Virus record (IMG/VR): IMGVR_UViG_2802429232_000009 | Direction: 5' to 3' (one strand) | Source of the DNA: a virus | Taxonomy: Duplodnaviria; Heunggongvirae; Uroviricota; Caudoviricetes | DNA: 17,274 nt | Shown here: positions 1,639 to 17,274 of the stretch, piece after piece | Layout: each line of letters begins with the position of its first letter | Position numbering within the stretch: the first letter of the stretch is position 1 | Program-made: the position numbers and the translations under genes | The notes under the pieces: generated by a model | The model's database searches: none | The model's input: the letters and a program-made list of their open reading frames with translations, nothing else | What the model was told of the DNA's origin: nothing

Positions 1639-1655
1639 CCGGGCATTGTGCCCGG
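1639..1655 (-). terminator. Perfect hairpin (CCGGGCA-TTG-TGCCCGG) 6 nt past the last tail-operon stop; candidate operon-end terminator
   Basis: 7-bp perfect stem with 3-nt loop read directly. On the minus-strand RNA it is followed by UUCCUUAUAU, only moderately U-rich, so termination efficiency is uncertain. Confidence 0.4.
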
Positions 1656-1661
1656 TGTGAT

Positions 1662-2117: not shown

Positions 2118-2821
2118 GGTTGCCAGCCTGTGGAGTAATCGTAGTCGAGCACCGCCTGAATATCGTCCAGTGCTTCCACCGCCGCGATATGGTGCTGAGC
2201 GTTGGCGAATAAGCGCATATCGTGATCCATTGTTACCGATTCAAACTGGGCGGCGATTTCGTTGGTTAACTCGATCAGACCGTTATTTTTAGTTTTCCAC
2301 ATTAAACCTGGTGGAATTTTTTTCTCCGCTCCCATTTTTGTGAGTGAGATCTGTTGAATTCGGCTGTTTGTATCACTGTGGAAGTGATGGTCGTTGATGA
2401 TGATGTAGTTGGTTGTGATGGTATCGCGTTGATTTTTGATTGCAGAGTATTTCGCCTCTTTAGCATCGGTTATAGATGGTTGCCATTTTTCACCATCCCA
2501 ACGTTCAAAAGAACCTGATGGGGCAATGATGGTGACAGTTTCAGGTAATTGACCCAATTCTTGAATAATAAGCTGGCTACCATCAACTTTGTTATAAACA
2601 GTTTGCCCGCGATGATCTTCAATGTGCTCCCATTTTTCATTCACCCAAACAGGAGTAAAACCTGAAACCTTTTCGGGTGGTGAATTTAATGTGCAATGAT
2701 TTGGCAAACCTGTATTAGGTGCAATGTATGCATCAGACTCACCGATATATTCTTGGGTGTCTTGTGAAAAATTATAAACAGTCAGTATTTGAGCTTCATC
2801 GGAAAATGTAAAAGTATTCAT
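2114..2821 (-). CDS. Tail fiber assembly protein / chaperone (Tfa, Mu U / P2 G family), 235 aa
   Basis: Immediately downstream of the tail fiber gene with an ATGA start/stop overlap at 2818..2821. The N-terminal region has the Tfa-type pattern ([17 protein letters not shown] ... [10 protein letters not shown] ... WDGEKWQ); the C-terminal 100 aa are divergent. GAGG Shine-Dalgarno present. Confidence 0.8.
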
Positions 2822-4443
2822 GCTAGCCTCACAATATAATTGAATGCGATATTTTTAACGGTGTTTTCGGTATTGCCGGTATTATTAATGGTTATAGAGT
2901 GATTATGGGCCCCAAGTGGAATTGAATGTGAATGGGTACCAATTGAAAGTTCATGTGTATGGCTACCCAATGCGATAGTATGTGCATGGGTACCAATGGC
3001 TGTAGTATGAGAGTGATCACCTACTGCATCGGTATTAACAAAATCATAACGAGAGTCACCGATAGAATCAGCGGTTAGTGCATTGCCACCGTAATCAGCA
3101 TCACCTTTACATGTTATTTGATGTGAATGGCCACCTGTGCTGGTCGACGATTTACTTCCGTGATTGAACGACGATGTTGTCTTAGAGCCAAGATCAGAGG
3201 CAGATACCGTTTTGTTTCCAAAATCAAAAGATGATGTTGCTTTTGTCCCTAAATCCGTACTAGAAATACTGCCCGTATGGTTGTGCGATTTAACCCCATC
3301 CAGTTCAGTAGATAATATATTACGCCCACTGCTGGTTTTCCCTTTAATTATCCATCCACGCATATCAGGGATGACGCCAGACGGATATGCAATTGCCAGT
3401 TTGGGATATGAGGCTTTATTAAATGTCTGACCTGTCATCAGGGCGTAGCCAGAAGGTACAGAATCAGACGGCCAAGGAATAGGCATCCCTACAGGGCAGC
3501 TTTCCGCAGCACTAGCCTTATCATACGCCGCCTTCACCGCACTCGGCGTAGCCGCCTCCGTCGTACTGTTGCTATCCGTCGCATTACTAAGCTTCACAAT
3601 CCCTTTTTGTGTCAGGGTGCCGTCCGGAATACCCGTAATCTGCCCCCAGGGGTGTGTATGACTACCCGCAGCCTTACCGTTCGCCAGGTCATACGCCGCC
3701 TTCACCGCGCTCGGTGTCGCCGCCTCTGTCGTGCTGGTGCTATTGGTCGCATTATTAAGCTTCACAATCCCTTTTTGCGTCAGCGTACCATCCGGTATAT
3801 CAGTAATCTGACTCCAGGTATGACGATGATTTCGAGCCTCAATCATTGCCGCTTTCACCGCTTTTGGCGTAGCCGCTTTGGTTTCGTCATCACTGTCAGT
3901 GGCGTTACTTAACTGCGTAAAGCCTTTTTGCGATAACGTAGCATCAGGGTGATTAGTCGAACGTTCATGTTCATCCAGTTGCGAATCAACATAATCCCGT
4001 GTTGCCAGCACAATACTGGGATCAACGGTGAGCGTTACCGCTGCCGTATTGGAAACTTCCATAATGAGACGAATGCAAACTTGCTTACCGCTGCCGCCGG
4101 GTAATAGCGGTTTATACGACTCCGGGAATTTACCGATAGCAATGAGTTCACCATCGGTATCAAAAACACCGACTTCACGTACATACCAGCCGCCGATATT
4201 TTCTGGCAGTACAAGTTCCGCAATTAACCAGTTAGGATTATTAGGCGCAACTGTTAATGTATTTAAATCACCGCGCCATACTTCATGGCGTAATTTAGTT
4301 TGGCTGACGGTGGGTTCATAATATTGCCCTCCGCTGTCGCCAACAGCCATTTTTTGTAGATGAAGCTGTTTTTTATCCGCCAGGGCATTGGCAATTTTTG
4401 CCATCCCTCTGTCAGTGAGTAGAGTATAAAACTCATTATCCAT
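2818..4443 (-). CDS. Tail fiber protein (541 aa): P2 gpH / Mu S-like N-terminus, tandem repeats, His-x-His-rich C-terminal tip
   Basis: The N-terminal block ([21 protein letters not shown] ... [29 protein letters not shown] ... ATPKAVKAA) is the conserved tail-fiber N-terminal domain of P2/Mu/lambda-type fibers. Three copies of the TLTQKG-x-VKLSNAT...[13 protein letters not shown] repeat follow. The C-terminus has six HxH motifs (HSH, HSH, HAH, HTH, HSH, HNH). GGAG Shine-Dalgarno; ATG at 4443. Confidence 0.9.
3514..3945 (-). repeat. In-frame tandem direct repeats of about 168 bp (56 codons) inside the tail fiber gene; two well-conserved copies plus one degenerate copy
   Basis: The 20-mer tcatacgccgccttcaccgc occurs at 3521 and again at 3690 (period about 168 bp), with long near-identical tracts between them. 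The third, degenerate copy is around 3846..3945. Confidence 0.8.
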
Positions 4444-4445
4444 AA

Positions 4446-5078
4446 TTACTCCGGGTAAATATATGTAATTTCAAGGCTCCATTGCCCTGCTCCGTAATAG
4501 ATTGATGTGTTTTGCTGTACTTCCCGTATCTGGAAAGGTAAAACCGTCGTCAGTTCACCACCATAAAGCGCACAGCCAATAACAGGAATAGCACTTTGGT
4601 TAATGATCCAGACGATTAATGCTTCCAGTTTTGAACGTGTATTTTTATATTCATGAATGAGTTCTACCAGATTATTGAAAAGGTTTTCATCCATGCCTTT
4701 ATCCACCAGCTCTATATCAACCTTAAAAAAATAAGCCTTTCCCTCATATTCAAACCATTCTGAAATAGTTCCTGGTAGAGAAAGTATTTCCAGTACCCGC
4801 CGTACCGCCCAAATCGTTCCTTTATATTTATGCAGCTCAATGGCTTGCTTAATTAACTCTCGCTTCTCCCGTTCATCAGTGGTAAATAACCAACCTTCCA
4901 GCCCCTGAACGTGAAATTGTTCTGCAAGGGCAGGTAATGCCGAAGCATCAACTAGGTCTACCAGATAAACCATCAACGCCGTCAGATCGAGTTGGGCAAA
5001 ACGCTCGGCGGCGATATTTGCCAGAGTTGAAAAACGCTCATCGCTGGCAAGCGGCGGTGGCGGCAGCAATTTATCCAT
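4446..5078 (-). CDS. Baseplate/tail protein, P2 gpI / Mu gp48-like (about 210 aa)
   Basis: Position between the gpJ-like and tail fiber genes. I prefer the ATG at 5078..5076 (GGAG Shine-Dalgarno 9 nt upstream; overlaps the TAA of the upstream gene) over the TTG at 5093 used in the ORF track. Confidence 0.75.
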
Positions 5079-6186
5079 CGCTGACTCCGGCAATCGTGAC
5101 GTCTATCGCGGTGCATTCCGCCCACTCATGCGCCTGCAAAATACGTTTTGTGGGCATGTTCAGCACAACGTCATAGACGCCATCGACCTGCAATACTTTG
5201 ATTATCTGGTTTGGCACAATGTCCTGTCCCAGATGTGTCTGCCGCTGTTGCGTCCAGAGGCTAATCGCTTTACGCGCCGCAGCCAGCGTTGTCTCCTGAT
5301 CGGCAGTGGTAAACAGTGTGAGCTGCGCACGGATCTCATACGGCACCCTAACGGCGCATTTCGCACTTACTTTGTCGGTCAGCGGACGTTTTTTCTCCTT
5401 ACTAACCTCCAGTTCAATTTGCGCGAGCAGTTCCACGCCCGGCAGACCATTCAGCGTTAGCGGGTAGATCTCCACGCAGCCTTCTGGTAATCCTTCGTCC
5501 GGCCCCAGGACCGCAACGTCAATAATCGACTGGCTTACGGAAAGCGTATGAAAGCGGTAGGCACCATAGCTACCCGCATTACTGAAACTTTCCGGCGCCA
5601 GTTGGATCCGTTGGCGCAGTGCGTCATCACTCTCTTCACCGCAGCCGCCCGTTGAAGCAGTCAGGTTGGTTACGTTGATATCGTAATAACCAATCCTGTC
5701 AACAAGGGCGCTAATTTGTGCAGGCTGCCAGCCATTGCCCGCTTCGCCTGTTGTCAGACTGGTGGCGGGAACGGCGATATGCAAACTTCCCGCCGGAATC
5801 AGAACATCTTCATCGGTAGCAAACATCACGCTGTCAGAGGCGCTGGCTCGTGTTCCTTGGGGGATCAGGATGTTGCTTGTATACGCATTGACTACCGAAA
5901 ACTGCAACGTCGTTTTTGCTGGCTGCGCAGGTAAGCGGTGAACGCCCACCAGTTCCCCTAAATAATCCAGCATTGGCGCGCGGGAATACGCGACCAGGTT
6001 CTGTTTCGCCGCTTCCTGAATGGCGATGCGTACAAGGTTTTCACGATAGGCAAAAAGGTCAATCAGCAACCGCTCGGCCTGTGCCGGGTAGAGCTTTTTG
6101 CCGCTGGCATCTTCGTACTGCGCAATCATCTCGCTGGTAATTTGCGCAGGATCGCGGTCAATAAAATTGGGTTCGGCTATCGCCAT
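5071..6186 (-). CDS. Baseplate wedge protein, P2 gpJ / Mu gp47-like (371 aa)
   Basis: Size and synteny (gpW-like, gpJ-like, gpI-like, fiber). GGAGGTG Shine-Dalgarno; 10-nt overlap with the upstream gpW-like gene. Confidence 0.85.
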   Translation of the reverse strand: MAIAEPNFIDRDPAQITSEMIAQYEDASGKKLYPAQAERLLIDLFAYRENLVRIAIQEAAKQNLVAYSRAPMLDYLGELVGVHRLPAQPAKTTLQFSVVNAYTSNILIPQGTRASASDSVMFATDEDVLIPAGSLHIAVPATSLTTGEAGNGWQPAQISALVDRIGYYDINVTNLTASTGGCGEESDDALRQRIQLAPESFSNAGSYGAYRFHTLSVSQSIIDVAVLGPDEGLPEGCVEIYPLTLNGLPGVELLAQIELEVSKEKKRPLTDKVSAKCAVRVPYEIRAQLTLFTTADQETTLAAARKAISLWTQQRQTHLGQDIVPNQIIKVLQVDGVYDVVLNMPTKRILQAHEWAECTAIDVTIAGVSDG

Positions 6187-6536
6187 AACACCTCCGTTGA
6201 GTTGATTACGCCGTCAGCGGTGCGCCATTGCACACGTAACGTCAGATGTTCCCCGTCGATTACCGGTGTCACCTTCAGCAACCGGCAGCGCGCTTCCCAC
6301 TGGCGAATGGCCTCTACCGACTCCCGTACCACATGCGGGATCGCCCGCTCGATGGGATAATCGATGTAGTGCCACAAGTTGCTACCAAACAGCGGTCTGT
6401 GGGGATCACTGCCGCGCGGTGTGCGCAGAATGATGTGTATTGCCTGGTGAATATCATCCAGTCCGCAGACGTATTCTTCAGGCCGCTGCAAGGCGGGTTG
6501 CCAGTGCAGCGTAGAGGGGCGTGTTTTCGTGTTCAT
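6177..6536 (-). CDS. Baseplate protein, P2 gpW / T4 gp25 / Mu gp46-like (119 aa)
   Basis: Motif LDDIHQAIHIILRTPRGSDPHRPLFGSNLWHYIDYP matches the conserved gpW/gp25 core. Weak Shine-Dalgarno. Preceded by a 98-bp gap containing a terminator. Confidence 0.8.
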   Translation of the reverse strand: MNTKTRPSTLHWQPALQRPEEYVCGLDDIHQAIHIILRTPRGSDPHRPLFGSNLWHYIDYPIERAIPHVVRESVEAIRQWEARCRLLKVTPVIDGEHLTLRVQWRTADGVINSTEVLWR

Positions 6537-6597
6537 GAGGGCATTTTCGCCCTGAACAGGCGGAGGAGATATTAAAGCGGTTTAGAAAACTGGTTGA

Positions 6598-6629
6598 TTA
6601 AAAAGAGAAAACCCGCCATCAGGCGGGTT
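6598..6629 (-). terminator. Intrinsic (rho-independent) terminator for leftward transcription, inside the tail operon
   Basis: Perfect 8-bp GC-rich stem (6610..6617 pairs with 6622..6629) and 4-nt loop, followed on the minus-strand RNA by UUCUCUUUUU. Starts 6 nt after the spike gene stop (6635). Not a terminator on the plus strand. Confidence 0.65.
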
Positions 6630-6634
6630 AAAAG

Positions 6635-7336
6635 TCAGTGTGAATGGTGGTTGGAGTTGCCACCGCTGTCCTGCAATGTGCCGCTGGCCTGCACGTTACC
6701 AATCACGTTGACATTGCCGGTTATCGTGGCGGCATTACCGATGCCTCCACTTCCTGCCATGCCACCCAGCCAGGTCAGTTTTTTCATCACCGTTACGTTG
6801 CCGGTAAAGGTACTGAGCGGTGCGTCTACCGTTACAGTCATCGCTTTAACATCCACCTTACTGGCTTCAATGCTGACATCGGTGGCTTTCACATCAACAG
6901 TGTCGGAAGTCACGGTGACGTGTTGGGCTTTAACCTCAACGTTGGGCGATGTCAGGCGGGTACGGTCGATAACCTCAATCACGATTTTTTCAATGCCGCC
7001 ATTAATCGTAAGCTGGTGGGTGCTGCGGTCATATTCAAACGCTGCGCCATCGGAAAACTGGACATACCTTTTATCGCGCGATGCTACTGGCGCGGTATCT
7101 ACCGTTGAATATACTGCGCCCAGCACTACTCCATCTTCACCGTTATCATCCAGCAGAACTTCCACCTGCTCTCCCATATCCGGTAGCCAGTAGTCTTTAT
7201 TGTCCTGAGAATTGCGCTGCAGCACCGCAAGCCAGTTACTCTTCAGATTGTCACACTCTGGTAGCGTGACCCGCACCCGAACGCTGGTTTCGTCAATATC
7301 ACTGATAATCCCCGTTTGCCGGGTTACTCCTTTCAT
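6635..7336 (-). CDS. Baseplate central spike, P2 gpV / Mu gp45-like (233 aa)
   Basis: Strong AAGGAGG Shine-Dalgarno. N-terminal OB-fold-like region and repetitive beta-rich C-terminal half (VTV/VDV repeats) ending in a His cluster (NSNHHSH). Position after the gpD-like gene. Confidence 0.8.
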   Translation of the reverse strand: MKGVTRQTGIISDIDETSVRVRVTLPECDNLKSNWLAVLQRNSQDNKDYWLPDMGEQVEVLLDDNGEDGVVLGAVYSTVDTAPVASRDKRYVQFSDGAAFEYDRSTHQLTINGGIEKIVIEVIDRTRLTSPNVEVKAQHVTVTSDTVDVKATDVSIEASKVDVKAMTVTVDAPLSTFTGNVTVMKKLTWLGGMAGSGGIGNAATITGNVNVIGNVQASGTLQDSGGNSNHHSH

Positions 7337-7345
7337 ATTGCCTCC

Positions 7346-8386
7346 TTACTGGCTGGTCGCTGGCCCGCGTGAAACGTCGATCTCAGTGGTATAGCCGCTG
7401 CGCACAAAACTGTGAGTAGATTTATCAATCAGCCACTGACCGGAAAGCACACCAAAATCGGTTAGCTCGATTTTATTGCCTGCCGTCAGTTCCGGGCAGC
7501 CCATCATCCTGAGCGTTCCGGTTTGTTGGTATTCGTTGTGGCTGTCGAGCGCGGCGTTGGCCTTTGCTTGTGCCGCGCCAACGTCCGGCGCCCGACTGTT
7601 CAGTTTTAGCGTGTCGGCACTGGTGCCGACTCCACGGGCAGACGGCTTTTGCTGGCTGTCGTGAGTGTAGATAACCAGTTCTTTTTTCTTACTATTTTGA
7701 TGCTGTACGGTGGCGTTTTTGTAGATACGGTTAATGGTATCTTTGAAGGTGAAATGCGAAACGTCTTTGCGGTCGATCTTTTTCACCGGCGCCAGGCAGC
7801 GCAGCGTGGGTAAATGCGAAAAAATCAGCTCTTTGGTGGTCACCTTTAGCGCATAGCCATATTCGCTGGCCAGGCGCTTGATAAATCCAACATCGGTTTC
7901 GCCGTACTGTGTTACCCGGTCAATTGTCAGAGGCTCGATTTTGCCCACCAGCGTCAGGCCGTGAGTTTGCGCGATACGGCTGGCGATGGCTGAAAGCGTT
8001 GTCTCTTCAAAGCCCTGACTATTACGGGTGCGCAGCGCCTGATTGACGGAAGTGGCGATGCCATCAATATTTACCGTGGAAGGTGGTGCTGAAATATCAA
8101 TTTTATCAATGATATATTGACCACAATCGAGCAGTTTTTCCCCCTGATAACCCATGTGCAGCGCCAGCGTATCGCCTTTGCCGGGATACCACTCTTTTAT
8201 CCAGCGTCCATCGGTGTCATCCAGTGTAATCGCGATGGTATCCGACTCGTTTTTAATACTGTCGTGATAACTGATACTGGTGACATAGGGCGTGATGTCA
8301 TAAGTGATATCTTTATGCCCATACCAGAGGGTAAAAATGGGCGCGAGCGTGGCAAAGACGCCGCCAGTTACGCTTATCTCAGCCAT
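7346..8386 (-). CDS. Tail/baseplate hub protein, P2 gpD / Mu P (gp44)-like (346 aa)
   Basis: Size and synteny (gpU-like, gpX-like, gpD-like, gpV-like). GGAG Shine-Dalgarno; start overlaps the end of the gpX-like gene by 13 nt. Confidence 0.8.
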   Translation of the reverse strand: MAEISVTGGVFATLAPIFTLWYGHKDITYDITPYVTSISYHDSIKNESDTIAITLDDTDGRWIKEWYPGKGDTLALHMGYQGEKLLDCGQYIIDKIDISAPPSTVNIDGIATSVNQALRTRNSQGFEETTLSAIASRIAQTHGLTLVGKIEPLTIDRVTQYGETDVGFIKRLASEYGYALKVTTKELIFSHLPTLRCLAPVKKIDRKDVSHFTFKDTINRIYKNATVQHQNSKKKELVIYTHDSQQKPSARGVGTSADTLKLNSRAPDVGAAQAKANAALDSHNEYQQTGTLRMMGCPELTAGNKIELTDFGVLSGQWLIDKSTHSFVRSGYTTEIDVSRGPATSQ

Positions 8387-8583
8387 GGTGGGATCTCCGA
8401 TACGGTTTTGTTGACGGAAATGACTGGAATAATGAGCTGAATACCGGAAGGCAGTACCGGATAAATGGCGACATGTGGATTGGCGGCGATAATGCGTTCG
8501 TAAGCCAGTGCATCACCGTAGTAATGCCATGCCAGATTATCCCAGCGTTCGCCGTCGGTGGTGATATGTTCAAGGTATCGCAT
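8374..8583 (-). CDS. Small tail protein, P2 gpX-like (LysM-like fold), 69 aa
   Basis: GAGGAG Shine-Dalgarno. TAATG stop/start overlap with the upstream gene at 8583..8585. Motif YGD..AYERIIAANPHVAIYPVLPSGIQLIIP resembles tail protein X. Sits between the gpU-like and gpD-like genes as in R-type tailocin loci. Confidence 0.65.
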   Translation of the reverse strand: MRYLEHITTDGERWDNLAWHYYGDALAYERIIAANPHVAIYPVLPSGIQLIIPVISVNKTVSEIPPWLR

Positions 8584-9536
8584 TACCAGCTCCTCGTAAT
8601 GGTCGCGGCAGCAAGCCGAGTCACTGCGGGAATGGTTTGCTGTACCGTTGTACGTGCCTGCTCAACCAACGTTGTGGCTTTATCGAAAGTTGCTTCGGCG
8701 ATGTCGCTGGTAATGTCGTCAAAAAGCGCCTGTGCATGGTCAACCAGTGTCCCGGCGTCTTCGGCACAGTCGCGGATGCCCGGCATGTTACCTAGCAATG
8801 CTTTAATCTGCGCCGACAACGCTTTTGGTAATCCTGCCAGCGTTTGCAGATCCATCGGCTGTTTAAACAGGGTTTCGATGGCATCGATAGTCTTTTTCAA
8901 CGACGTAATTATCTTTTCACACTTTTCTTTTAACGCTTTGGCCTCTTTAATCAGTGCTTTGATCTTTGCCACTGTTTTTTTAATATCTTCAATGGATTGC
9001 GCCAGTTCATCGAGCATCTCTTTGGCTTTGCGCATACCTTCTTCAATGGTGTTCAATATCTGATCCAACCAAGACTCCACCTTGTCCGGAAAATCGCTCG
9101 CCTTTTCGTCAATATTAGGCTCCTGGGTGGTAATCGCCGGGGGCAGGAGTGGGTTTTTCGGATCGCCGGTATACTCCTGGAGCGACATTGTTCCGCTTTG
9201 GGCAATGATATTGCCCCAGGGATCGGTGTGCTGGTGAGTGGCGGTTAACTCTGTAATTACAAACCAGCCGCGATAATCACCGTTGCCAAACACCAGCGCC
9301 ATTGCTTTGTGGGCGAGCATGGCTTCACGCAGTCGATTCAGCTCTGTTGTGGGTTGGCAAAACTGGCTGTGCAGGGAAAATTCCAGCGCCAGCATGTCCA
9401 GCTTATCGCCAATAAACTGCACGCCAGGTTTGCCTTCAATACGGGCATGTGTGGCGTAATCCACGCCCATTGTGCTTTTAAAGCCATCCCAGAATGTGAC
9501 AACTTTAAATTCAATCTCACCTAAAACGGCATACAT
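8583..9536 (-). CDS. Tail protein at the Mu N position with a gpU-like N-terminal domain and a long K/E-rich coiled-coil C-terminal extension (317 aa)
   Basis: ATGA overlap with the tape measure stop at 9536..9538. The first 110 aa or so (EGKPGVQFIGDKLDMLALEFSL ... GNGDYRGWFVITEL) resemble the P2 gpU tail-terminator family; the remainder is predicted alpha-helical. Confidence 0.65.
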   Translation of the reverse strand: MYAVLGEIEFKVVTFWDGFKSTMGVDYATHARIEGKPGVQFIGDKLDMLALEFSLHSQFCQPTTELNRLREAMLAHKAMALVFGNGDYRGWFVITELTATHQHTDPWGNIIAQSGTMSLQEYTGDPKNPLLPPAITTQEPNIDEKASDFPDKVESWLDQILNTIEEGMRKAKEMLDELAQSIEDIKKTVAKIKALIKEAKALKEKCEKIITSLKKTIDAIETLFKQPMDLQTLAGLPKALSAQIKALLGNMPGIRDCAEDAGTLVDHAQALFDDITSDIAEATFDKATTLVEQARTTVQQTIPAVTRLAAATITRSW

Positions 9537-11905
9537 CAGGCATACCCCCGGCGCTGTTGCTGCGCCATTACGTCGTTAATCATTCTTTCCAGTTCGCGTT
9601 TACTCATCGTCAACACGTTCTGAATGTCTTTAGTGGTGTTTTGTCCGTTACTCTGCACGGTAATTTGTGGCGAAAAATTCACCTGGACTTTTCCCAGGGA
9701 ACGGGAGGGTAGCGTCGCCGGTTTGGTTACGGATTTACCAGGTAAAGAGGCCGACGCGGGTTTTGCCGCTGGCGCCGATGACGGCGTAGCCGTTTTGCTG
9801 GATGGCGCGAGTTGTTTGCCCACAGGCGGCGTTAAAAGCGCACCGGCAACGCCTGGAACAACGGTCGCGGGGGAGACTGATGCGGTATTAGTCGTGCCTG
9901 TAACAGCCGCAGCCGATGCTTCTGTGCTGATCCCCATTGTGGCTTTTAGCCAGTCTGGCATGGCGTTTTTGACCTGATCAATAATGCTTTTCAGAGCGGG
10001 GAAAGCATTCATTATGCCGTCGGCCAGACTACCCAGTATATTGCTGCCGAACTCGCTAAAACTCGCAGGCATCTCAACACCAAACCAATTCATCACATCG
10101 GAAAAGGCGCTGTAAAACAGCCCCAGTGGCGACCAGTCGAGAATCAACCGGCTAATACCAGCAATGCCGCCATCAAAGGCCGTGGTGATACGTTGCCAGA
10201 TGGCGGAAAATAACCTGGATATAGGTGCCCAGTTGCGATAAATCAGATAAGCCGCGCCCGCAATCGCAGTGATGACCAGACCAATGGGATTCATCAGTAG
10301 CACCCGACCTAGCGAGAGAACGGTTCGACCAACCAGTTTCAATGCTCCGATCAGGCCACGACCAAGCAGTTGCGTTAGCCATTTTGCGCCGCCACCCAAT
10401 GACTTAACCGCCGATAGCACCTTACTTGCCGTGCCTCCGAGCGCCAGACTTGCCCTCACTTTCAGGAAGATATCGACCAGACGAATAAACGGCGAGGCGA
10501 TGAAGTTCGCGCCCAGCTTTAAAACATTCAGCGCACCGTTAAACAGCCAAATCGCCCCGACGATTTTCGCAATGTTTTGCACCAGCGCCGGATGTTCGCG
10601 TAGCCAGGCGCTGAACTGGCGAATAACCGGCGCAAGGCTTTGCGCCAGCTCGCCAATCGCCGGCATAAGTTGTAAGCCAATGCTGAGCCATAAATCATTT
10701 AACGCCAGTTGTAACGCTTTAGTCTGTTCAATGGGCGAGGCCATTTGCGCAGAAAAGTCAGCGTTAATCAGATTCTTGCTGGTGGCTTGCATGGCAGAGG
10801 CTTTTAGCTGGCGATATTCCTCCATATTCGCCAACATAGGAGCCAGAAATTCCACCGTTTGCGCATCGCCGAACATTTCGCCCAGATTAAATTGCGTCAC
10901 CATCGATTGCAGCGCAGTGCTGCGGGCAGATAAATCTTCAATCTGCATGGTGCGTTTGAAGGTATCGAGGATCGCCGGATTCATCTTCTCAAGCTGCATT
11001 TGCACGATATGAGTCATAGCTTCGCTAACACCCATACCGTTTTGCTGATGCTCAAGCAGAGAACCTTGCAGATCGACCCCCTGGCTGGCGAACCAGCTAT
11101 CGGTTTTTTTCGAAAAGGTGGTTTGCAGAAAATGAGCGAAATTTTCCGTCGCCGCACTGGCGCTGGCACCGTTTTTCATGGCGATCTGCATGGTGGCGGC
11201 CAGTTCAGCCATACCTTCCAGACCCTGAGCGCCGGTTTTACCTGCAAATTTCTCTATCCACTGCGTTTGTTCGGTAATGGCAGGCCCACCGCTTTTGGTA
11301 ACGCTGTACATCATGTTTTGCGCAGCGTGGAAATTTTCTGGGGCAATATTCAGTCGATCATGAGTCGCGAGCGCGGCTTTCGCCCATGTTTCGGCGCTGT
11401 CGCGCGTGGCGGTGGCGGCTTTGGCGATCTCCGGCATATAGCGGTTGAGATCCTGCAAGGACGATATGTTGCCTTCAACTAAGGTCAGAGCGGCGGACTG
11501 TAACGTGGTCTGCTGCTGGTTAAAATCCATACTCCAGTCGCGCAGATTAAGGCTGAGCGTCTCGCGGGTGGCATCACTCATCCCGCCTTTGGTCGCCATA
11601 TTGACCATATTGACCATATTGTCCTGAAACTCATACGGCAACTTCCAGTCGGGGGCTTCAACATTAAATACTTTGCTAAATTGCCCGGCAAATGTTTGGG
11701 TTTTCTCCATCAGATTAGCGCGGCTGCGGCTATTTTCCTCCAGGCGGAGAGCGGAATTGGCAAGCCGCTGCGTTAGTTTGATAACTGTCGCTTGCTGAGT
11801 AGAGAGAGTTAACAATGTTCTGGCGTTGAGTGAGCCGTAACGGGCTATTGCCTGCGTCAACGTCTCATTACGCGCCTGAAGCTGGGTAATAATATCGTTG
11901 GCCAA
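9536..11905 (-). CDS. Tail tape measure protein (789 aa)
   Basis: Largest ORF, directly after the chaperone gene. Long helical N-terminal part, a central hydrophobic glycine-rich segment, and a Pro/Ala/Ser/Thr-rich tract near the C-terminus. The only available start is TTG at 11905 (in-frame TAA 15 nt upstream; AAAGAG Shine-Dalgarno-like motif). Confidence 0.85.
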   Translation of the reverse strand: MANDIITQLQARNETLTQAIARYGSLNARTLLTLSTQQATVIKLTQRLANSALRLEENSRSRANLMEKTQTFAGQFSKVFNVEAPDWKLPYEFQDNMVNMVNMATKGGMSDATRETLSLNLRDWSMDFNQQQTTLQSAALTLVEGNISSLQDLNRYMPEIAKAATATRDSAETWAKAALATHDRLNIAPENFHAAQNMMYSVTKSGGPAITEQTQWIEKFAGKTGAQGLEGMAELAATMQIAMKNGASASAATENFAHFLQTTFSKKTDSWFASQGVDLQGSLLEHQQNGMGVSEAMTHIVQMQLEKMNPAILDTFKRTMQIEDLSARSTALQSMVTQFNLGEMFGDAQTVEFLAPMLANMEEYRQLKASAMQATSKNLINADFSAQMASPIEQTKALQLALNDLWLSIGLQLMPAIGELAQSLAPVIRQFSAWLREHPALVQNIAKIVGAIWLFNGALNVLKLGANFIASPFIRLVDIFLKVRASLALGGTASKVLSAVKSLGGGAKWLTQLLGRGLIGALKLVGRTVLSLGRVLLMNPIGLVITAIAGAAYLIYRNWAPISRLFSAIWQRITTAFDGGIAGISRLILDWSPLGLFYSAFSDVMNWFGVEMPASFSEFGSNILGSLADGIMNAFPALKSIIDQVKNAMPDWLKATMGISTEASAAAVTGTTNTASVSPATVVPGVAGALLTPPVGKQLAPSSKTATPSSAPAAKPASASLPGKSVTKPATLPSRSLGKVQVNFSPQITVQSNGQNTTKDIQNVLTMSKRELERMINDVMAQQQRRGYA
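11596..11621 (-). repeat. Short in-frame tandem repeat (9-bp unit ccatattga, about 2.9 copies) inside the tape measure gene
   Basis: Read directly: gccatattgaccatattgaccatattgtcc. It encodes the duplicated tripeptide in DNMVNMVNMA. Confidence 0.7.
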
Positions 11906-12094
11906 AATTGTTTCTCTTTAAATATTGATAATGGCCCGCTGGTTATTTTTCTAAAAAAAGGGGCAGGGAAGAAATAAACCTGACGGGCTTGGGAAACTCG
12001 CAGACATCAGGTCTGCGAGCCATATTCGATTTTTATTTGGGCGTTGGCTTCATCCAGCCAGTTGCTAAAGTCATCGACGGTAAGGGCGTCTATC

Positions 12095-12412
12095 TCACTG
12101 GGCGGAAAGCGAAACCATCTCGCCAGTAGCGCCATTGCCTGCCATAGCAGGGGAGGATTCTGTAACCACGCTAAGCATAGATTGAAATCGTTTCTGCAAT
12201 GCCTGGTAATCCAGCAAATCCATTTCAGCTAAATCTTCTGGCACCAGTCCGGTCATTGCAGCCATTAGCGGTTCATCCCACTCTTCTGGTTTTTCGCTGA
12301 TCCGGCGGGCGTTGCGCATATCTTTTACTTTCAGGCGACGTAATTGCAGAGTGTTAATTACGTCTCCCGCCGCTGAAGTAAACGGGAACTGTAAGATATA
12401 ATGTTCTTTCAT
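12095..12412 (-). CDS. Tail assembly chaperone (P2 gpE / Mu gp41 / lambda gpG-equivalent position), 105 aa
   Basis: Small acidic ORF between the tube and tape measure genes. AAGGA Shine-Dalgarno. An overlapping alternative-frame ORF extends 3-prime of it (see findings). Confidence 0.7.
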   Translation of the reverse strand: MKEHYILQFPFTSAAGDVINTLQLRRLKVKDMRNARRISEKPEEWDEPLMAAMTGLVPEDLAEMDLLDYQALQKRFQSMLSVVTESSPAMAGNGATGEMVSLSAQ

Positions 12413-12439
12413 TTTGTATCCTTATTTATCATGCGGAAA

Positions 12440-12457
12440 TCGGGGCCGTAGCCCCGA
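12440..12457 (-). terminator. Hairpin between the tube and chaperone genes; possible attenuator or mRNA-stabilising stem-loop
   Basis: 7-bp perfect stem (TCGGGGC/GCCCCGA) with 4-nt loop in the 50-bp gap downstream of the tube stop. Followed on the minus-strand RNA by UUUCC only, so at most a weak terminator. Confidence 0.35.
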
Positions 12458-12462
12458 ATAAC

Positions 12463-12987
12463 TTAGCCACCGATGTTATTGCGATAGGTACTTAATTGAT
12501 CCACGCCGTTAACGCGGAAAATATTCGCCAGGTAATCCAGCTCCAGCAGTGTTTCACCATCGACCACCTGTTTAATATAGGTACAACCAAAGGCGCTGCT
12601 GAATTCCGGGTTTTCATTTTGTTTAAATGTTCCCAGTGGATTCTTTTTAAACATAACAGTCAAATGAGTGACTAACGCTAATTGATTCGCTTTCCCCTGG
12701 GAGTTATAGCAATCAATACTGGAGCGGCACTGTAATGCTACCGCCTGCCACGGGTTTGCCGTTTTACGCATGACGTCCTGATAAAAGGAGTTCCATTTAA
12801 TTTCCCCTTCCAGTTTATCGAAACCTGCCGGGAGCTCGATTTTACCGACCATGCCCAGTGCTTTATGCTCCTGCATAATTAAACTGACATCCGGTAATTT
12901 AATTTCGGTTGCACGACCTAACAGGTTATTACCATCGAGATAAATATTGGCATTGGTAATACGGTTAATTTGAATTTTTCCAGCCAT
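12463..12987 (-). CDS. Tail tube protein (P2 FII / Mu M-like), 174 aa
   Basis: Directly follows the sheath gene with a TAATG stop/start overlap at 12985..12989. GGAGAG Shine-Dalgarno. Size and position typical of contractile-tail tube proteins. Confidence 0.85.
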   Translation of the reverse strand: MAGKIQINRITNANIYLDGNNLLGRATEIKLPDVSLIMQEHKALGMVGKIELPAGFDKLEGEIKWNSFYQDVMRKTANPWQAVALQCRSSIDCYNSQGKANQLALVTHLTVMFKKNPLGTFKQNENPEFSSAFGCTYIKQVVDGETLLELDYLANIFRVNGVDQLSTYRNNIGG

Positions 12988-14411
12988 TAGCTATTGCTCT
13001 CCAGAGAGACTAAATATTCAGAAGTAATTTCAGTTTCAAACGTCAGACGTTCCAGCGGCGGTGGCGGGGTGAATTTATAGCTCAGCAATAAATGCCCGGC
13101 GCTGAGTTCGGTCGGTGAATTTCGCGCCGGATCGTACCAGCACTCAAAGCCAAGCAGTGCGCCGTCGGCAATCAGCTTACGGCCCCAGGTATTTACCGAC
13201 TCGGTCAGGGCATCAATTAGCGCCTGATTAATCGGCATATCGATATACTGCTGGCTGAAATAGCGGATCGACTCGTTAATCACATCGCCCGTGCGGCGAA
13301 CGTTTTCAAAGTTACGCATATGGGTCACGGTAGGCCATGCCGCAGTGCGGTTGCCCCATAAACGCAGACCAGAGCCGTAACTATTGAAAACTGTGGTAAT
13401 GCCGTTTTCGTTGAGCTGATTCACTTCACTTTGCGGGTCATCAACCATTGCGGAAAGTGAACGTTCGATACCGATAATGCCCTGAATTTCCTGGTTTGAG
13501 TTACTCCACCAGAAACCTTTCTCCAGGTCTACTTTGGCACGCAGTCCGGCAGCGCGTGAAGAGAGCGGTTCGAGAACTTCCTGGTTGGTTGAGCCGTCAT
13601 AAACTTTGACGTGCGGATAGCATAAACGCGCACGGTCAGAACTGGTGTTGAAGTTGATTGCGCCTTTCGAGCCGCGACCAGCCAGCACCTGCTGGAATGT
13701 AGTACCGATTGGGGCGTCAATGTAGGCGATAGCACCGAGTTTGTCCGCCTGAGCAATCAGCTCTGTGGTGACCGATTTTTGCGTACAGAAAACCGGAGCA
13801 AGCAGGATTTTGGCGTAGAAACCATACAGATTATAGGTGTCCTGTAGCAGTTTCATCCCCGTGCGATCGCCTGCGGTATTAACGGCGCCAATAATATCGG
13901 CTGCGGTAACTTTTGTTGGATCGGCCCATGAGTAATAGGCGCAAACTTTCGCTCCGGCAGGGATCTCAGTTTCTGCACGAGTGATTATTCCTGTTTGTTC
14001 ATCAACATGAAACGCTGTGCTGCTATACGTGGTGGCTGATGTTGAAGAGGGTTTCAGGACAACATTACGCACCGCACTATGAGCCAGTTTCGCCTGGTTG
14101 TTGGAATCAAAAGTGATACTCTCATTGCTGATGCTGGAGCCATGTTTTACCGGGTCCAGTACGTTAATCACCACCACCGTACCAGCGCCGTGGTCGTAAA
14201 TCGCCTTCAGCGCCTGCGGGATCGTAAAGTTAGCCTGAGTCGAGCCAAACTGCGCGGCATCGCTTTCAGAAAGGCACAATGTTGGTTTGTTTACCGGACC
14301 GCATGGTGCACTACCGATTAAAGCGATTACAGCGGATTTTACCGCTTTAACCGGGCGCGGACCGGTTTCAATTTCAATGGTTTCGACACCGTGCAGGTAA
14401 TTAGCTGCCAT
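12987..14411 (-). CDS. Tail sheath protein (Mu L / P2 FI-like), about 474 aa
   Basis: Large ORF immediately upstream of the tube gene. I prefer the ATG at 14411..14409 (GGAGAGG Shine-Dalgarno 8 nt upstream; overlaps the TAA of the preceding ORF) over the TTG at 14417 in the ORF track. Confidence 0.9.
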   Translation of the reverse strand: MAANYLHGVETIEIETGPRPVKAVKSAVIALIGSAPCGPVNKPTLCLSESDAAQFGSTQANFTIPQALKAIYDHGAGTVVVINVLDPVKHGSSISNESITFDSNNQAKLAHSAVRNVVLKPSSTSATTYSSTAFHVDEQTGIITRAETEIPAGAKVCAYYSWADPTKVTAADIIGAVNTAGDRTGMKLLQDTYNLYGFYAKILLAPVFCTQKSVTTELIAQADKLGAIAYIDAPIGTTFQQVLAGRGSKGAINFNTSSDRARLCYPHVKVYDGSTNQEVLEPLSSRAAGLRAKVDLEKGFWWSNSNQEIQGIIGIERSLSAMVDDPQSEVNQLNENGITTVFNSYGSGLRLWGNRTAAWPTVTHMRNFENVRRTGDVINESIRYFSQQYIDMPINQALIDALTESVNTWGRKLIADGALLGFECWYDPARNSPTELSAGHLLLSYKFTPPPPLERLTFETEITSEYLVSLESNS

Positions 14412-14598
14412 GTACAATTTCCTCTCCGGTATTTTGTTCTTCCTGAGTGATGACGGGAGTCAGATGATTGCGGGCAATCATGGTCATGACCCACTCGTTG
14501 TCTTCTGGCAGATCAATTTCACTGTTCGGCCACAATAAGATTTCTTGTCCGTCGGCAAGGGTGACGCCGCTTGCCGGGCCGTTGTAGATATATTTCAT
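14401..14598 (-). CDS. Small phage protein (65 aa), Mu gp38-like position; probable tail completion / neck-proximal protein
   Basis: ATGA overlap with the upstream ORF at 14595..14598. GAGGAA Shine-Dalgarno. Acidic. Position directly before the sheath gene. Confidence 0.55.
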   Translation of the reverse strand: MKYIYNGPASGVTLADGQEILLWPNSEIDLPEDNEWVMTMIARNHLTPVITQEEQNTGEEIVHGS

Positions 14599-15050
14599 TC
14601 AGTTTCCTCGTAATTAACTTCAGTAAGCAGGGTAAGGTCCGCGCTTTCCCGTTTCGCGATAAACAGCGAGCTGGTCGCCATTTCCAGGATGTAGCGGCAG
14701 AAACCACCGCTCTCGCCTGCATTGATTTCTTTTTCAAGCCAAAGAAGACGCTCGCAATCAGGAAGCTGGATCCCTCCCAGTGCGCTGCGTATGCGATCCA
14801 GTGCGTTTAACGCGTCACAATTTTTGCCAACAATAACGGTGGCAGTTAAGCGGAGCGTTTGCTGTTGCACGAGAGCATCACTGCTTTCAGGCATGGCAAA
14901 TAGAGAACCGCTATAATTAATAATTACTGTAACTTGCTGTGTCTGTGGAATATATTTCTGGGCATCGACCGATGAAATAAATACGTCCATTTCGGGATTC
15001 TGTTCACGTAATCTGGTCACAACAGAATTCATTACAGATAAAATTTCCAT
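14595..15050 (-). CDS. Phage protein (151 aa), Mu gp37-like; probable tail completion / sheath-initiator protein
   Basis: AAGGA Shine-Dalgarno. Position between the lysis cassette and the sheath gene, where Mu-like phages encode tail-completion proteins. Family assignment from memory only. Confidence 0.55.
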   Translation of the reverse strand: MEILSVMNSVVTRLREQNPEMDVFISSVDAQKYIPQTQQVTVIINYSGSLFAMPESSDALVQQQTLRLTATVIVGKNCDALNALDRIRSALGGIQLPDCERLLWLEKEINAGESGGFCRYILEMATSSLFIAKRESADLTLLTEVNYEETE

Positions 15051-15167
15051 ATAGGGTGTTCCTTAATTATTGCTGATTCGTTAACGCTTACTCCGTTATC
15101 GTTGAAATGTATTCTGACGTAGTGAAGGTGAAGGATCTTTTAATCTGCTTTAGAGAAAAAATTGAAT

Positions 15168-15482
15168 TTAATAGCTGCCACGTTGTAATAGCTCTATTTT
15201 GCTATATAAGGCATCCAGCTTTGCTTCTAATACTGCCTGGCCACGAAGATAATCTTCTCTGCGGACATAATGCAGCGGAAGCTCGGCACGAAATTCGAGA
15301 AATTCTCTTTCCAGTTTCGACCAATTTGTTTCTGATTCCCGGCGTGCGTTTTCCAGAGATTCAAAACGCTCATTAAGTCTTTTTTCAATTTGTGCTAACA
15401 GCAATTTTCCGGCAGCAAACATTAATCCAACGAAGGAAAGCATAAGGGAGATCACTTCCCAAAAATCGATACTGAGTTTCAT
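15168..15482 (-). CDS. Lysis accessory membrane protein (104 aa): N-terminal TM helix plus coiled coil; i-spanin-like or Mu gp25 (releasin)-like
   Basis: GAGGAG Shine-Dalgarno 5 nt upstream. One hydrophobic segment (VISLMLSFVGLMFAAGKLLLA) followed by a charged helical region. Located directly after the lytic transglycosylase gene. Confidence 0.55.
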   Translation of the reverse strand: MKLSIDFWEVISLMLSFVGLMFAAGKLLLAQIEKRLNERFESLENARRESETNWSKLEREFLEFRAELPLHYVRREDYLRGQAVLEAKLDALYSKIELLQRGSY

Positions 15483-15494
15483 CGGCTCCTCTGT

Positions 15495-16103
15495 TTAGTG
15501 AAGACAGCTTGCCTGTCCCCAGAGTAAGTAGCGGGCGGCATGTTGATAGAGGATCATCTTCGGGTAGTGACGATTTTCTCGCCAGTTCGCGGCGCTACGC
15601 CCGGCGTTGACGTGTTCAACATGACCAAACCAGATAGTGGCATCTAACCCTTTGGATGCGGCCAGTTTTTTATCCCGGTTAACCCATCCCTGACCGCCGT
15701 TATAGGCGCTTAGGGTAAATGCCATACGCTGACAGTCATTTTTCGCAGAGATGTTTTTCCACAAATGCTGGTCATATTGCACCAGCGCGCGAATCGCCCA
15801 GGTTGGGTTATAGGGCTTATTTTCACGTAGCTGTGGATACAACTGGCTTATCCATGTCGCTGTGGCAGGCATAAATTGCGCCATACCTTGTGCGCCGACG
15901 GGGGAACGCGCCATTGGCTGCCAGGCGGATTCCTGGTGTAACTGCCCGGCGAAGTCCGCCACCGGGGCGTTCAGCCCCCAGACTTCTCGTGCAGTTCGAA
16001 TCAGTTCGTTTCGCCATGCCAGAGATGCTCGCGGCGGTTCAGATGCGTTAAGCGGGAAGAACGCGAACAGAGTAATTAGCGCGAGAAATTTTACCTGCAT
16101 CAT
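15495..16103 (-). CDS. Lytic transglycosylase (SLT domain) endolysin with an N-terminal signal peptide or SAR-type sequence, about 202 aa
   Basis: Catalytic-site region LHQESAWQP ... AQGMAQFMPATA is the family-1 lytic transglycosylase signature. I place the start at the ATG at 16103..16101 (MMQVKFLALITLFAFFPLNA-SEPP), which overlaps the TAA of the upstream gene (TAATG). The longer 16199 start in the ORF track would overlap the upstream gene by 97 nt. Confidence 0.85.
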   Translation of the reverse strand: MMQVKFLALITLFAFFPLNASEPPRASLAWRNELIRTAREVWGLNAPVADFAGQLHQESAWQPMARSPVGAQGMAQFMPATATWISQLYPQLRENKPYNPTWAIRALVQYDQHLWKNISAKNDCQRMAFTLSAYNGGQGWVNRDKKLAASKGLDATIWFGHVEHVNAGRSAANWRENRHYPKMILYQHAARYLLWGQASCLH

Positions 16104-16390
16104 TAAAGTCCTAACGCGACGGAAAGGCAGACGGCTGCAACGATGATAGCCCGACGAATCATTGCCGCCGCGCAGCATCGCGCCTCTTCCCAAGGGCAAA
16201 ATGAGTCAGGCCGCGCCCAGGGAAACAGACTGCGATCGAGCCAGTATCCCAGCACAGCGGAGAGCGAAACCAGGCTTAGTTTATAAATGACTACCGGGAT
16301 CTGTGCGGAAGATGTCCAGCCGATCACGACAAACAGCGCGACGGAAGCGACCAGCCAGCCGGAAAGCCGGGGAAAAGTGACTTTTTTCAT
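16103..16390 (-). CDS. Small membrane protein with 3 predicted TM segments (95 aa); holin/antiholin candidate, first gene of the leftward operon
   Basis: Strong AGGAG Shine-Dalgarno 8 nt upstream of the ATG at 16390. Three hydrophobic stretches. Translationally coupled to the endolysin gene. Holin identity is positional inference only. Confidence 0.55.
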   Translation of the reverse strand: MKKVTFPRLSGWLVASVALFVVIGWTSSAQIPVVIYKLSLVSLSAVLGYWLDRSLFPWARPDSFCPWEEARCCAAAMIRRAIIVAAVCLSVALGL

Positions 16391-16926
16391 ACGATATCTC
16401 CTGATAAGTGAGCGTTTAGTGTCGCCAGATCCCTCCAGTGAAGAATGAAAAAAGCTTTAATAAATAACTTTAAAAAATAGATCCTCTATAAATGAACATG
16501 CTCGCTAATAAATCCACCCATTAATAAAAGAGCAAAAGGTGACCTGGCGAATAAGCGCGTCATTATGCAGGGAAAAGAGGATGGTGGATCGTAGGAGTAG
16601 TCAGTAGTTATTTGATTTTTAAAGTTTGTTTAAGAAAGTTAGCGACTGTGAGGGAAACGATCTTTTTATACTACAGGTAAAATAATACTGTATGTGTATA
16701 CAGTATCGTGTAAAATGATACTCCAGTTGACAAGAAACGTAACGCAAACAATATATTTATTTTGTGAATTTATGGTGTTCATTAATATTAAAAATTTATA
16801 TTTTTGGTGATTGTTTATTTGTTTGTTGAATGTATTGAGTAGCAGTAATGACAACTGCTTAGCGTATATCCGTGGTTTTACACGCATCGGGTCTTATACA
16901 GGATGCAAGATATATGGAGATGAAAA
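16391..16926. promoter_or_regulatory. Divergent AT-rich control region between the lysis/tail operon (leftward) and the Mor-family activator gene (rightward)
   Basis: 536 bp with no ORF of convincing coding character on either strand. Contains the LexA box below, a TAAAAT -10-like hexamer at 16711..16716, a TTGACA at 16727..16732, and three TAATAAA heptamers at about 16459..16528. Confidence 0.6.
16686..16705. promoter_or_regulatory. LexA (SOS) box: TACTGTATGTGTATACAGTA
   Basis: Perfect CTGT-N8-ACAG palindrome with the conserved flanking TA dinucleotides. Differs from the enterobacterial consensus TACTGTATATATATACAGTA only at two central spacer positions. A -10-like TAAAAT lies 5 bp to its right, so the box overlaps the -35/spacer of a candidate rightward promoter. 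Confidence 0.6.
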
Positions 16927-17274
16927 ATGATACGAAAATCAAAAGAGATGGCCCGGACACCGGAGATCATTAACGACCTGGCGTTTCATGCATCGCAAGT
17001 TCTGATTGAGAGCATCAATCTCGACAGCTCATCGGCGGAAAATGTGGGCTTTGCCATTGCTGACCGAATGATGCGTAACTGGGGGGGGCAAAGCATTTAT
17101 TTCCCGAAAGGGATCTCTGGACGGGCGTCGGAGCGTGACTACCAAATCTATAGCGAGTGCGATGGTCGCAACTACGCCGAATTAGCGAAGAAATATAATC
17201 TGACGCTGCAATGGATTTATAAGATAGTGAAACGCGTACATGCGGAAAAGCAACAGCGCCGTAGTAATTCGTAA
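16927..17274 (+). CDS. Mor/C-family phage transcriptional activator (115 aa)
   Basis: C-terminal region GGQSIYFPKGISGRASERDYQIYSECDGRNYAELAKKYNLTLQWIYKIVKRV aligns by eye with the DNA-binding C-terminal domain of Mu Mor (GGGQVYIPRG ... DFNGRNVSELTTRYGVTFNTVYKAIRRM). GGAG Shine-Dalgarno 7 nt upstream; stop TAA at 17272..17274, the window edge. Confidence 0.85.
   Translation: MIRKSKEMARTPEIINDLAFHASQVLIESINLDSSSAENVGFAIADRMMRNWGGQSIYFPKGISGRASERDYQIYSECDGRNYAELAKKYNLTLQWIYKIVKRVHAEKQQRRSNS

Follow-up and report, generated by a model that had tools for sequence, protein, structure and literature searches.

The window analysed here, 17,274 nt of viral DNA (Caudoviricetes; IMG/VR record IMGVR_UViG_2802429232_000009), ends in mor, a gene for a Mor/C-family transcription activator that is transcribed away from a long run of lysis and contractile-tail genes. 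Features of the region between them point to the host SOS response as the input of this switch: we propose that LexA represses mor, that DNA damage lifts this repression, and that Mor then activates two or three late promoters, a model that we lean slightly towards accepting. The SOS input is the most informative feature of the control region. Although the parts are familiar, neither their wiring nor the element, which is linked to the host gene lysC, has been described as a tailocin system in the literature searched.

In undamaged cells, a LexA dimer on its operator (positions 16686-16705) would occlude the overlapping promoter elements, so that mor stays low. Following DNA damage, activation of RecA would lead to self-cleavage of LexA and to transcription of mor with a leader of ~200 nt. 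Mor would then bind conserved A/T-rich blocks of ~25 bp that immediately precede promoters with a -10 element but a poor -35, as a dimer of dimers by analogy with Mor and C of phage Mu, and sigma-70 RNA polymerase would be recruited to the promoters of the holin gene (P_lys), the Gp37 gene (P_tail) and probably gpW (P_bp). Tail particles would assemble, and the holin and the SLT transglycosylase would lyse the producer cell. The host LexA operator would thereby stand in place of a phage repressor, with mor, the ancestral terminal early gene, as the only regulator gene kept. The coordinates of all features are collected in Table 1.

Table 1. Genes, operator and candidate regulatory elements of the window
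Feature	Coordinates	Strand	Description
mor	16927..17274	+	115 aa, ATG start; Mor/C-family transcription activator; terminal gene of the element
mor translation-start region	16908..16926	+	Shine-Dalgarno GGAGAT at 16916-16921; conservation island in the six-locus alignment
Conserved octamer	16709..16716		TGTAAAAT; directly right of the LexA box, within island 16682-16719
LexA (SOS) operator	16686..16705		TACTGTATGTGTATACAGTA; 18/20 to consensus, CTGT-N8-ACAG intact
Block2	16612..16638	+	Inverted partial copy of Block1; 11-nt identical core TTTTTAAAGTT at 16616-16626; left of the LexA box
Block1	16454..16478	-	Conserved, 25 bp, A/T-rich, minus strand ATTTTTTAAAGTTATTTATTAAAGC; candidate Mor-binding site of the lysis promoter P_lys
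P_lys core	16418..16445	-	-10-like GACACT (16423-16418), poor -35 TTCTTC (16445-16440); predicted start near 16411
Lysis cassette	15168..16390	-	Holin, SLT transglycosylase and 104-aa membrane protein; from Pfam, in agreement with E. coli RefSeq annotation
Holin	16103-16390	-	Pfam PF13272 (Holin_2-3), 3e-27; heads the minus-strand run
SLT transglycosylase	15495-16100	-	Pfam SLT; start as in E. coli annotation
104-aa membrane protein	15168-15482	-	Part of the lysis cassette
P_tail (candidate)	15108..15161	-	Block TTTTTTCTCTAAAGCAGATTAAAAGA (15161-15136), then TCCTTC, -10-like GAATACA (15114-15108); upstream of Gp37
Tail structural genes	1662..15050	-	Gp37, sheath, tube, chaperone, tape measure, gpU/X/D/V/W/J/I homologs, fibre, DUF4376, 151-aa open reading frame
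P_bp (candidate)	6543..6629	-	Terminator-like hairpin (6629-6600), block GTTTTCTAAACCGCTTTAATATCTC (6590-6566), -10-like GAAAAT (6548-6543)

A LexA operator in a conserved island upstream of mor

To profile conservation in the gap between the holin gene and mor (16391-16926), column agreement was calculated across six representative loci and smoothed over 12 nt, with islands called at ≥0.85. Mean agreement over the gap is 0.68, and four islands stand out: 16393-16413, covering the holin Shine-Dalgarno region; 16449-16482; 16682-16719; and 16908-16934, covering the Shine-Dalgarno sequence and start of mor. The third island holds the LexA box, which is the only match in the window (0.04 expected by chance). 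This box is kept in five genera, namely in E. coli, Salmonella (two lineages), Dryocola, Phytobacter and Superficieibacter, and is present in every full-cluster locus checked except that of Enterobacter hormaechei. Its distance to the mor ATG is 221 nt in the window and 221-232 nt across loci, apart from one locus with a 65-nt insert, and is thus more constant than its distance to the holin ATG (298-350 nt). Intact BcepMu-like phages, which have repressor genes of their own, carry no LexA box. Together, these features suggest that LexA binds at 16686-16705 and that the promoter it would occlude serves mor.

The octamer beside the operator can be read as a promoter element in both directions. 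Read rightward, towards mor, it supplies the -10 TAAAAT (16711-16716), with a weak -35-like CTGTAT (16688-16693) inside the LexA box (7.1 bits). Read leftward, it supplies the -35 TTTACA (16714-16709), with the -10 TACAGT (16692-16687) inside the box (9.9 bits); this leftward promoter is the one picked by a simple sigma-70 scan, and it is the only sigma-70 match conserved in position (7/8 loci). The LexA-occluded promoter may therefore face either way or be bidirectional. Were the octamer to serve both as a -10 rightward and as a -35 leftward, derepression would fire mor and leftward read-through together. A -10-like hexamer also lies 1-4 nt left of the LexA box in every locus.

Several smaller features surround the operator. 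A direct repeat of 13 nt, GTAAAATRATAC (16676-16688 and 16709-16721), brackets the box in the window as well as in E. coli and yields two TAAAT-type -10-like hexamers, one per side. Between Block2 and the box, at 16657-16666, lies a conserved ACGATCTTTT with a Dam site (GATC), at the position of which Salmonella and Phytobacter have the palindrome CGATC-TTTTT-GATCG. The hexamer TATACT at 16667-16672 was considered as a -10 linked to Block2 and rejected, as it is not conserved even within E. coli. Inspection by eye found no match to the IHF consensus. The GC content of the gap is 0.34. A 73-aa minus-strand open reading frame (ORF) at 16666-16887 was rejected as a gene, having no Pfam match and lying in indel-rich DNA.

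mor encodes a full-length activator under purifying selection

The mor stop codon ends on the final base of the window. Its product matches the Pfam Mor family (PF08765; E=7.1e-38, 129 bits against a cut-off of 24.9) over profile positions 2-103 of 107, making it a full-length family member, and aligns to the structures of Mu Mor (PDB 1rr7, E=5e-8) and Mu C (9l0x, E=7e-5) across the beta-strand linker and the helix-turn-helix (HTH). Its linker, WGGQSIYFPKG, pairs with LGGGQVYIPRG of Mor and LGGRQFYIPCG of C (GGxxxYxP), and the HTH alignment reaches residue 109. The protein has an acidic N-terminal part (net charge -2, residues 1-45) and a basic C-terminal part (+5, residues 76-115), as in the family. 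When all six-frame segments of the window were compared with a profile hidden Markov model (HMM) of the family, this was the only member (E=5e-61; runner-up E=0.9).

The exact protein, WP_000619864.1, is found in 11,719 blocks of the assembly index, and this allele together with the full cluster is very common among E. coli assemblies. Compared with E. coli alleles, the window gene differs at 15-17 of 348 nucleotides, every change being synonymous, and the ratio of nonsynonymous to synonymous substitution rates (dN/dS) is ~0.03-0.05 in comparisons with unsaturated dS. Given this low ratio and the exclusively synonymous differences, mor is a maintained gene under strong purifying selection.

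In most genera, the mor leader (16853-16910) contains complementary GCACC and GGTGC segments just 5′ of the Shine-Dalgarno sequence, in place of which the window and E. coli have a local GCAGT/ACTGC hairpin; either could form a leader structure. An Rfam scan of the gap gave only a chance-level match (E=0.75). Some Salmonella (L028, L029, L039) carry an orphan mor, intact or near-intact, between a hexapeptide acetyltransferase gene and lysC. Nothing of the tail cluster remains in these genomes; the LexA box and holin-promoter block are missing too, and the original upstream region is reduced to ~150 bp.

Conserved A/T-rich blocks precede candidate late promoters

Upstream of the holin gene, Block1 lies in the 16449-16482 island, where mean column agreement reaches 0.90 as against 0.68 for the gap as a whole. 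It occurs once in the window, and its spacing to the -35, the -10 and the holin Shine-Dalgarno sequence is free of indels across nine loci. The -10 of P_lys reads GATACT or CATACT in other genera, giving a conserved AGTRT column in the alignment. This arrangement fits an activator-dependent promoter with a predicted leader of ~20 nt.

Similar arrangements are found at two further places. The P_tail block is kept in 9/9 loci, though it is looser in Enterobacter hormaechei (L021) and in Superficieibacter-type loci. P_bp lies after gpV and just before the gpW start at 6536, and its block and -10 are retained in Salmonella despite insertion of the gtrABC genes immediately upstream. The fourth block, Block2, is conserved in 6/9 loci and may be a second activator site, possibly for autoregulation.

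A T-run, TAAAG/C and TTAA are common to all four blocks. The corresponding pattern TAAAS-N4-7-TTAA, which was picked post hoc, matches only the four block sites in 17 kb, all of them intergenic, where 1.6 matches are expected. Measured by ungapped matches against dinucleotide shuffles, the P_tail and P_bp blocks resemble each other (20/30, p=0.003), the P_lys block and Block2 reach the same number of matches at p=0.06, and similarity is not significant for the other pairs. A single motif common to all four blocks was rejected as lacking statistical support. That each block is a conserved cis element is nonetheless well supported, and by analogy with the Mu activators one protein, Mor, may bind them all. 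Tetramers of Mu Mor and C cover ~26 bp directly ahead of a weak -35 (bioRxiv 10.1101/2025.05.02.651988), and the conserved 25-26-bp A/T blocks upstream of -35-poor candidate promoters at three places in the window may be compared with the imperfect ~26-bp dyad sites of the family.

The Mor-box motif was also sought in distant homologs. Pasteurellaceae Mor homologs have the same recognition helix, QWIYKIVKRV; their late promoters fall outside the 10-kb flanks, within which matches to the core motif are uninformative. In KP12 and BcepMu, the recognition helices differ from that of the window protein, and no clear block motif was found.

Two further features were noted around P_tail and P_bp. A rho-independent terminator separates the lysis cassette from the P_tail block in Salmonella, Phytobacter and Superficieibacter, and none is present there (15051-15167) in the window, E. 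coli, Dryocola or Enterobacter hormaechei. As this terminator varies, the coupling of lysis and tail genes may differ between lineages. The GAAAAT of P_bp ends 6 nt ahead of the gpW ATG, with no Shine-Dalgarno sequence there; a genuine P_bp would give a gpW message with little or no leader.

A headless tail cluster at a single chromosomal site

The genes that Mor is proposed to control form a complete contractile-tail set with a lysis cassette. The gpU/X/D/V/W/J/I homologs are P2-type baseplate and tail genes and, like the lysis genes, all lie on the minus strand. Neither the ORF list nor Pfam revealed capsid, portal, terminase, transposase, integrase or repressor genes in the window, and the annotations of E. 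coli and Salmonella show no repressor gene in the cluster or its flanks. RefSeq annotation of the homologous E. coli clusters gives tail and lysis genes plus Mor, and nothing else. With this complete tail and lysis complement, and without genes for capsid, packaging, replication or integration, the cluster is by gene content a headless contractile-tail, R-type tailocin-like element, which would be expected to produce particles.

A homologous 16-kb cluster is found in 197 of 5,426 complete E. coli genomes at 90-99% DNA identity, the window cluster itself being 93-94% identical to those of E. coli. It corresponds to STM4198-STM4219 in Salmonella LT2 numbering, with gtrABC inserted, and was further seen in Enterobacter hormaechei, Dryocola, Phytobacter and Superficieibacter. 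Across these six genera, ~20 tail and lysis ORFs are intact and syntenic, at 55-99% protein identity. The order of mor and lysC was checked in 12 loci from Escherichia, Salmonella, Enterobacter, Dryocola, Phytobacter and Superficieibacter: a convergent lysC directly follows mor in all 12, within about 40-200 bp, which indicates a single chromosomal site across the six genera. In all nine loci that extend far enough, pgi comes next after lysC.

Some local variation was seen within and beside the cluster. In a Salmonella Infantis contig (L019, 5288-8620), the O-antigen glucosylation genes gtrABC and another ORF lie between gpV and gpW in the late orientation. The Enterobacter hormaechei loci (L021/L022) have intact mor and tail genes but no longer a LexA box, and half of the holin-promoter block has degenerated. 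The longest ORF for the SLT transglycosylase, 15495-16199, overlaps the holin gene by 97 nt, and the equivalent of the E. coli start is 16100; from this start, the N-terminus MQVKFLALITLFAFFPLNA resembles a signal or signal-anchor sequence, as in secreted or signal-arrest-release endolysins. The left flank of the window (1-1660; GC 0.38) encodes a 383-aa family-4 glycosyltransferase that also matches Pfam 'GT4-conflict'. This flank has no match among the 5,426 complete E. coli genomes, where slipin and nucleotidyltransferase genes take its place. Together with the 93-94% identity of the cluster to E. coli, this makes a different Escherichia lineage the probable source.

The divergent single activator is inherited from BcepMu-like phages

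The closest phage homologs of the window Mor are BcepMu gp01 and phiE255 gp32, at 49% identity, followed by those of enterobacterial BcepMu-like phages such as KP12; including KP12_298, the phage homologs span 44-49% identity, and some are annotated 'RdgB'. In BcepMu, KP12 and prophages of Brenneria, Xenorhabdus and Serratia, the Mor homolog is the only family member in each. It comes last in an early operon of ~8 kb (a ner-like gene, transposase, B, Gam, GemA, Mor), and the late genes lie on the opposite strand, leading away from it: holin, SLT endolysin, head genes, gp36/gp37, sheath, tube and P2-like baseplate. The window has the same single terminal Mor homolog pointing away from a holin, SLT, gp37, sheath, tube and P2-like baseplate operon, and its tail genes are syntenic with BcepMu genes 37-52.

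The BcepMu-like early operon (transposase, B, Gam, GemA), a phage repressor and a head module are found neither in the window nor in its E. coli and Salmonella homologs. Because these are missing, we class the element as a derivative rather than a prophage: judged by homology and gene order, it descends from a BcepMu-like transposable prophage, not from Mu. Since BcepMu-like phages share the layout, the divergent single activator is inherited synteny from which the early and head modules have been deleted.

This ancestry bears on the original prediction, made from the letters of this window, which read the locus as a simplified, one-activator version of the Mu cascade. Much of its description stands. 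The PF08765 match and the six-frame HMM search bear out its claims of one Mor-family gene and of no second activator in the window, mor (+) and the lysis/tail operon (-) do diverge across a gap of exactly 536 bp, and the search that it suggested for a second Mor/C paralog to the right of the window found none, lysC following directly at all homologous loci checked. It had also reported no convincing sigma-70 promoter upstream of 16390, and our simple sigma-70 scan agrees in finding no leftward promoter near the holin; the conserved -10-like hexamer with a weak -35 is the -35-poor promoter it expected. The derivation from Mu has to be given up, as a single divergent Mor is already ancestral in BcepMu-like phages. 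Nor did the prediction include the LexA operator as the input of the switch, the headless nature of the tail cluster, or the likely presence of more than one late promoter.

Expression data and alternative explanations

In RNA sequencing data from S. Typhimurium 14028, STM14_5073 rises 4.1-fold with nalidixic acid, from 49 to 204 transcripts per million (TPM) (PMC8072944 Dataset S1). This 348-bp plus-strand gene (4451529-4451876) matches mor in size and position, and the data offer weak support for a damage-responsive mor.

Other observations weigh against control of mor by LexA and of the late genes by Mor. In the same study, no lysis or tail gene of the cluster is among the ~2,160 differentially expressed genes, mor mRNA already stands at 49 TPM without inducer, STM14_5073 is not among the genes for which the authors list a LexA box, and the nalidixic acid comparison is confounded by growth phase (PMC8072944). 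In strain 14028 at least, these data argue that activation of the late genes is not a simple matter for which mor expression suffices. As for the sequence, the better sigma-70 match over the LexA box faces the late genes, away from mor, and the rightward -35 is weak; Enterobacter hormaechei retains mor without the box; and the orphan mor of Salmonella lineages without the tail cluster hints that Mor may act on other targets. The candidate Mor boxes resemble each other weakly, apart from those of P_tail and P_bp, and the P_lys block lies ~10 bp farther from its -10 than the other two do from theirs. Finally, a literature search found no paper on the regulation of this element, on binding or expression experiments with it, or on its particles and their killing of related bacteria.

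The orientation of the best promoter match raises the possibility that LexA directly gates the leftward promoter, which would read through a 290-bp leader into the holin and tail genes, with mor transcribed from its own downstream promoter or promoters and Mor acting as a co-factor or amplifier at internal promoters. This promoter is the top sigma-70 match as well as the only one conserved in position, and the LexA box covers its spacer and -10 in the classic SOS geometry. In Salmonella, however, nalidixic acid induced the mor-sized gene and not the holin and downstream genes, the box keeps its distance to mor better than its distance to the holin, and a conserved -10, an upstream block and a ~20-nt leader belong to the holin gene itself. 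Independent transcription of mor would agree with its substantial uninduced mRNA in Salmonella and with promoter-like sites found nearer mor in every locus, ~60-100 bp right of the box; these sites are conserved in neither position nor sequence, chance matches are expected in AT-rich DNA, and a constitutive activator of a lysis operon would be hazardous. We consider direct gating of the late genes unlikely.

A decaying prophage remnant would account for late genes that are no longer inducible, with mor co-opted for host genes and the motifs being relics or serving other factors such as H-NS, for which a gap of such low GC content is a likely target. Co-option has a parallel in the Mor-like RdgB of Pectobacterium, which activates pectin lyase, and would suit the intact orphan mor of Salmonella lineages that lack the tail cluster and the LexA box, while decay would suit the absence of differential late-gene expression in S. 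Typhimurium, the gtrABC insertion in the Salmonella cluster and the loss of the box in Enterobacter hormaechei. It is harder to square with some 20 tail and lysis ORFs that are all intact and syntenic over six genera, with regulatory islands conserved within a diverged background, or with the abundance in E. coli assemblies of the exact Mor allele beside a full cluster; the internal promoter block has also outlasted the arrival of gtrABC. This explanation seems to us improbable. More so is the stand-alone cascade of the original prediction, simplified from the Mor-to-C relay of Mu and having no defined upstream input, which we consider very improbable: the single Mor-family gene and the -35-poor holin promoter are what it leads one to expect, but in the BcepMu-like lineage the single divergent activator is ancestral, the conserved LexA operator supplies an input, and an activator of a lysis operon cannot top the hierarchy without one that represses.

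The model that we favour, LexA repression of mor followed by Mor activation of the late genes, can be taken further. In a BcepMu-derived tailocin inherited at the lysC locus of at least six enterobacterial genera, host LexA may now do the work of the phage repressor, with a compact bidirectional promoter, feedback through Block2, three late promoters and all-or-none lysis in a subpopulation; this fuller version is tentative, and we would not expect it to hold in its entirety.

Comparison with known systems

BcepMu-like phages provide the nearest relatives of the system, sharing with the window the closest phage Mor proteins, a single activator per genome and its place as a terminal gene divergent from the late operon; the Pfam family Gp37 takes its name from the BcepMu phage group. 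In these phages, mor stands at the far end of the ~8-kb early operon under a phage repressor, and there is no LexA box. In the window, by contrast, the early genes, repressor and head module are absent and the LexA operator lies 221 bp upstream of mor.

The likeness to Mu is one of protein family and, as proposed, of promoter type. The Mu activators serve several promoters with a -10 but a poor -35, and the late units Plys, PI, PP and Pmom parallel the two or three candidate units of the window. Mu has two paralogs in series, co-directional with and upstream of the late genes, whereas the window has one, on the plus strand and divergent from late genes on the minus strand. Sequence identity to Mu Mor and C is confined to the linker and HTH, and the candidate sites of the window, being A/T-rich blocks, have no established relation to Mu sites.

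In its logic, the proposed circuit also resembles that of Pseudomonas aeruginosa R/F-pyocins, in which loss of a repressor upon DNA damage allows production of a small dedicated activator that switches on the genes for tail and lysis (PMC10598620). Both concern headless tail bacteriocins with their own lysis cassettes. The pyocin activator PrtN belongs to a different family, the window activator matching Mor only, and PrtR is a LexA-like repressor encoded in the cluster, whereas the window cluster has no repressor gene and its operator fits host LexA itself.

RdgB of Pectobacterium, reportedly described by Liu et al. in 1994, is said to be a Mor-like activator induced by DNA damage. It is controlled by RdgA, a separate cleavable repressor encoded adjacent to it, and also drives a non-phage gene, pnlA; the RdgA/RdgB pair controls pectin lyase and carotovoricin. 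The logic is similar to that proposed here. No RdgA-type gene lies beside the window mor. Carotovoricin itself is described as a Mu-type tailocin with no repressor in its cluster (PMC13566846). Among other tailocins of enterobacteria, that of E. coli ST131 in the literature is a P2-like prophage and not the lysC-linked locus, and a review of kosakonicin gives no details of regulator or locus.

Colicin operons of the E. coli SOS regulon carry a LexA operator over the promoter of the structural genes, which are directly repressed. Here too, a LexA operator of the consensus type lies across promoter-like elements that would serve killing and lysis. In the window, repression appears to act through an intermediate activator, and there are separate upstream blocks at the structural promoters.

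Significance

Should the model prove wrong, the locus would still make clear that a lone Mor gene divergent from the late genes is normal synteny of the BcepMu type. If it is right, the control circuit would be small and fully specified, with a single LexA operator, an activator of 115 aa and short blocks at two or three promoters, and could supply portable parts for engineered tailocin production. It would be a compact case of the domestication of a transposable prophage, in which host LexA takes the place of both the phage repressor and the early operon. It would become directly testable whether these model organisms are tailocin producers, and quinolones and other DNA-damaging antibiotics would be expected to set off lysis and the release of particles. 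A conserved, SOS-inducible phage-tail weapon would then be present in common E. coli lineages, in many Salmonella serovars and in several other Enterobacteriaceae.

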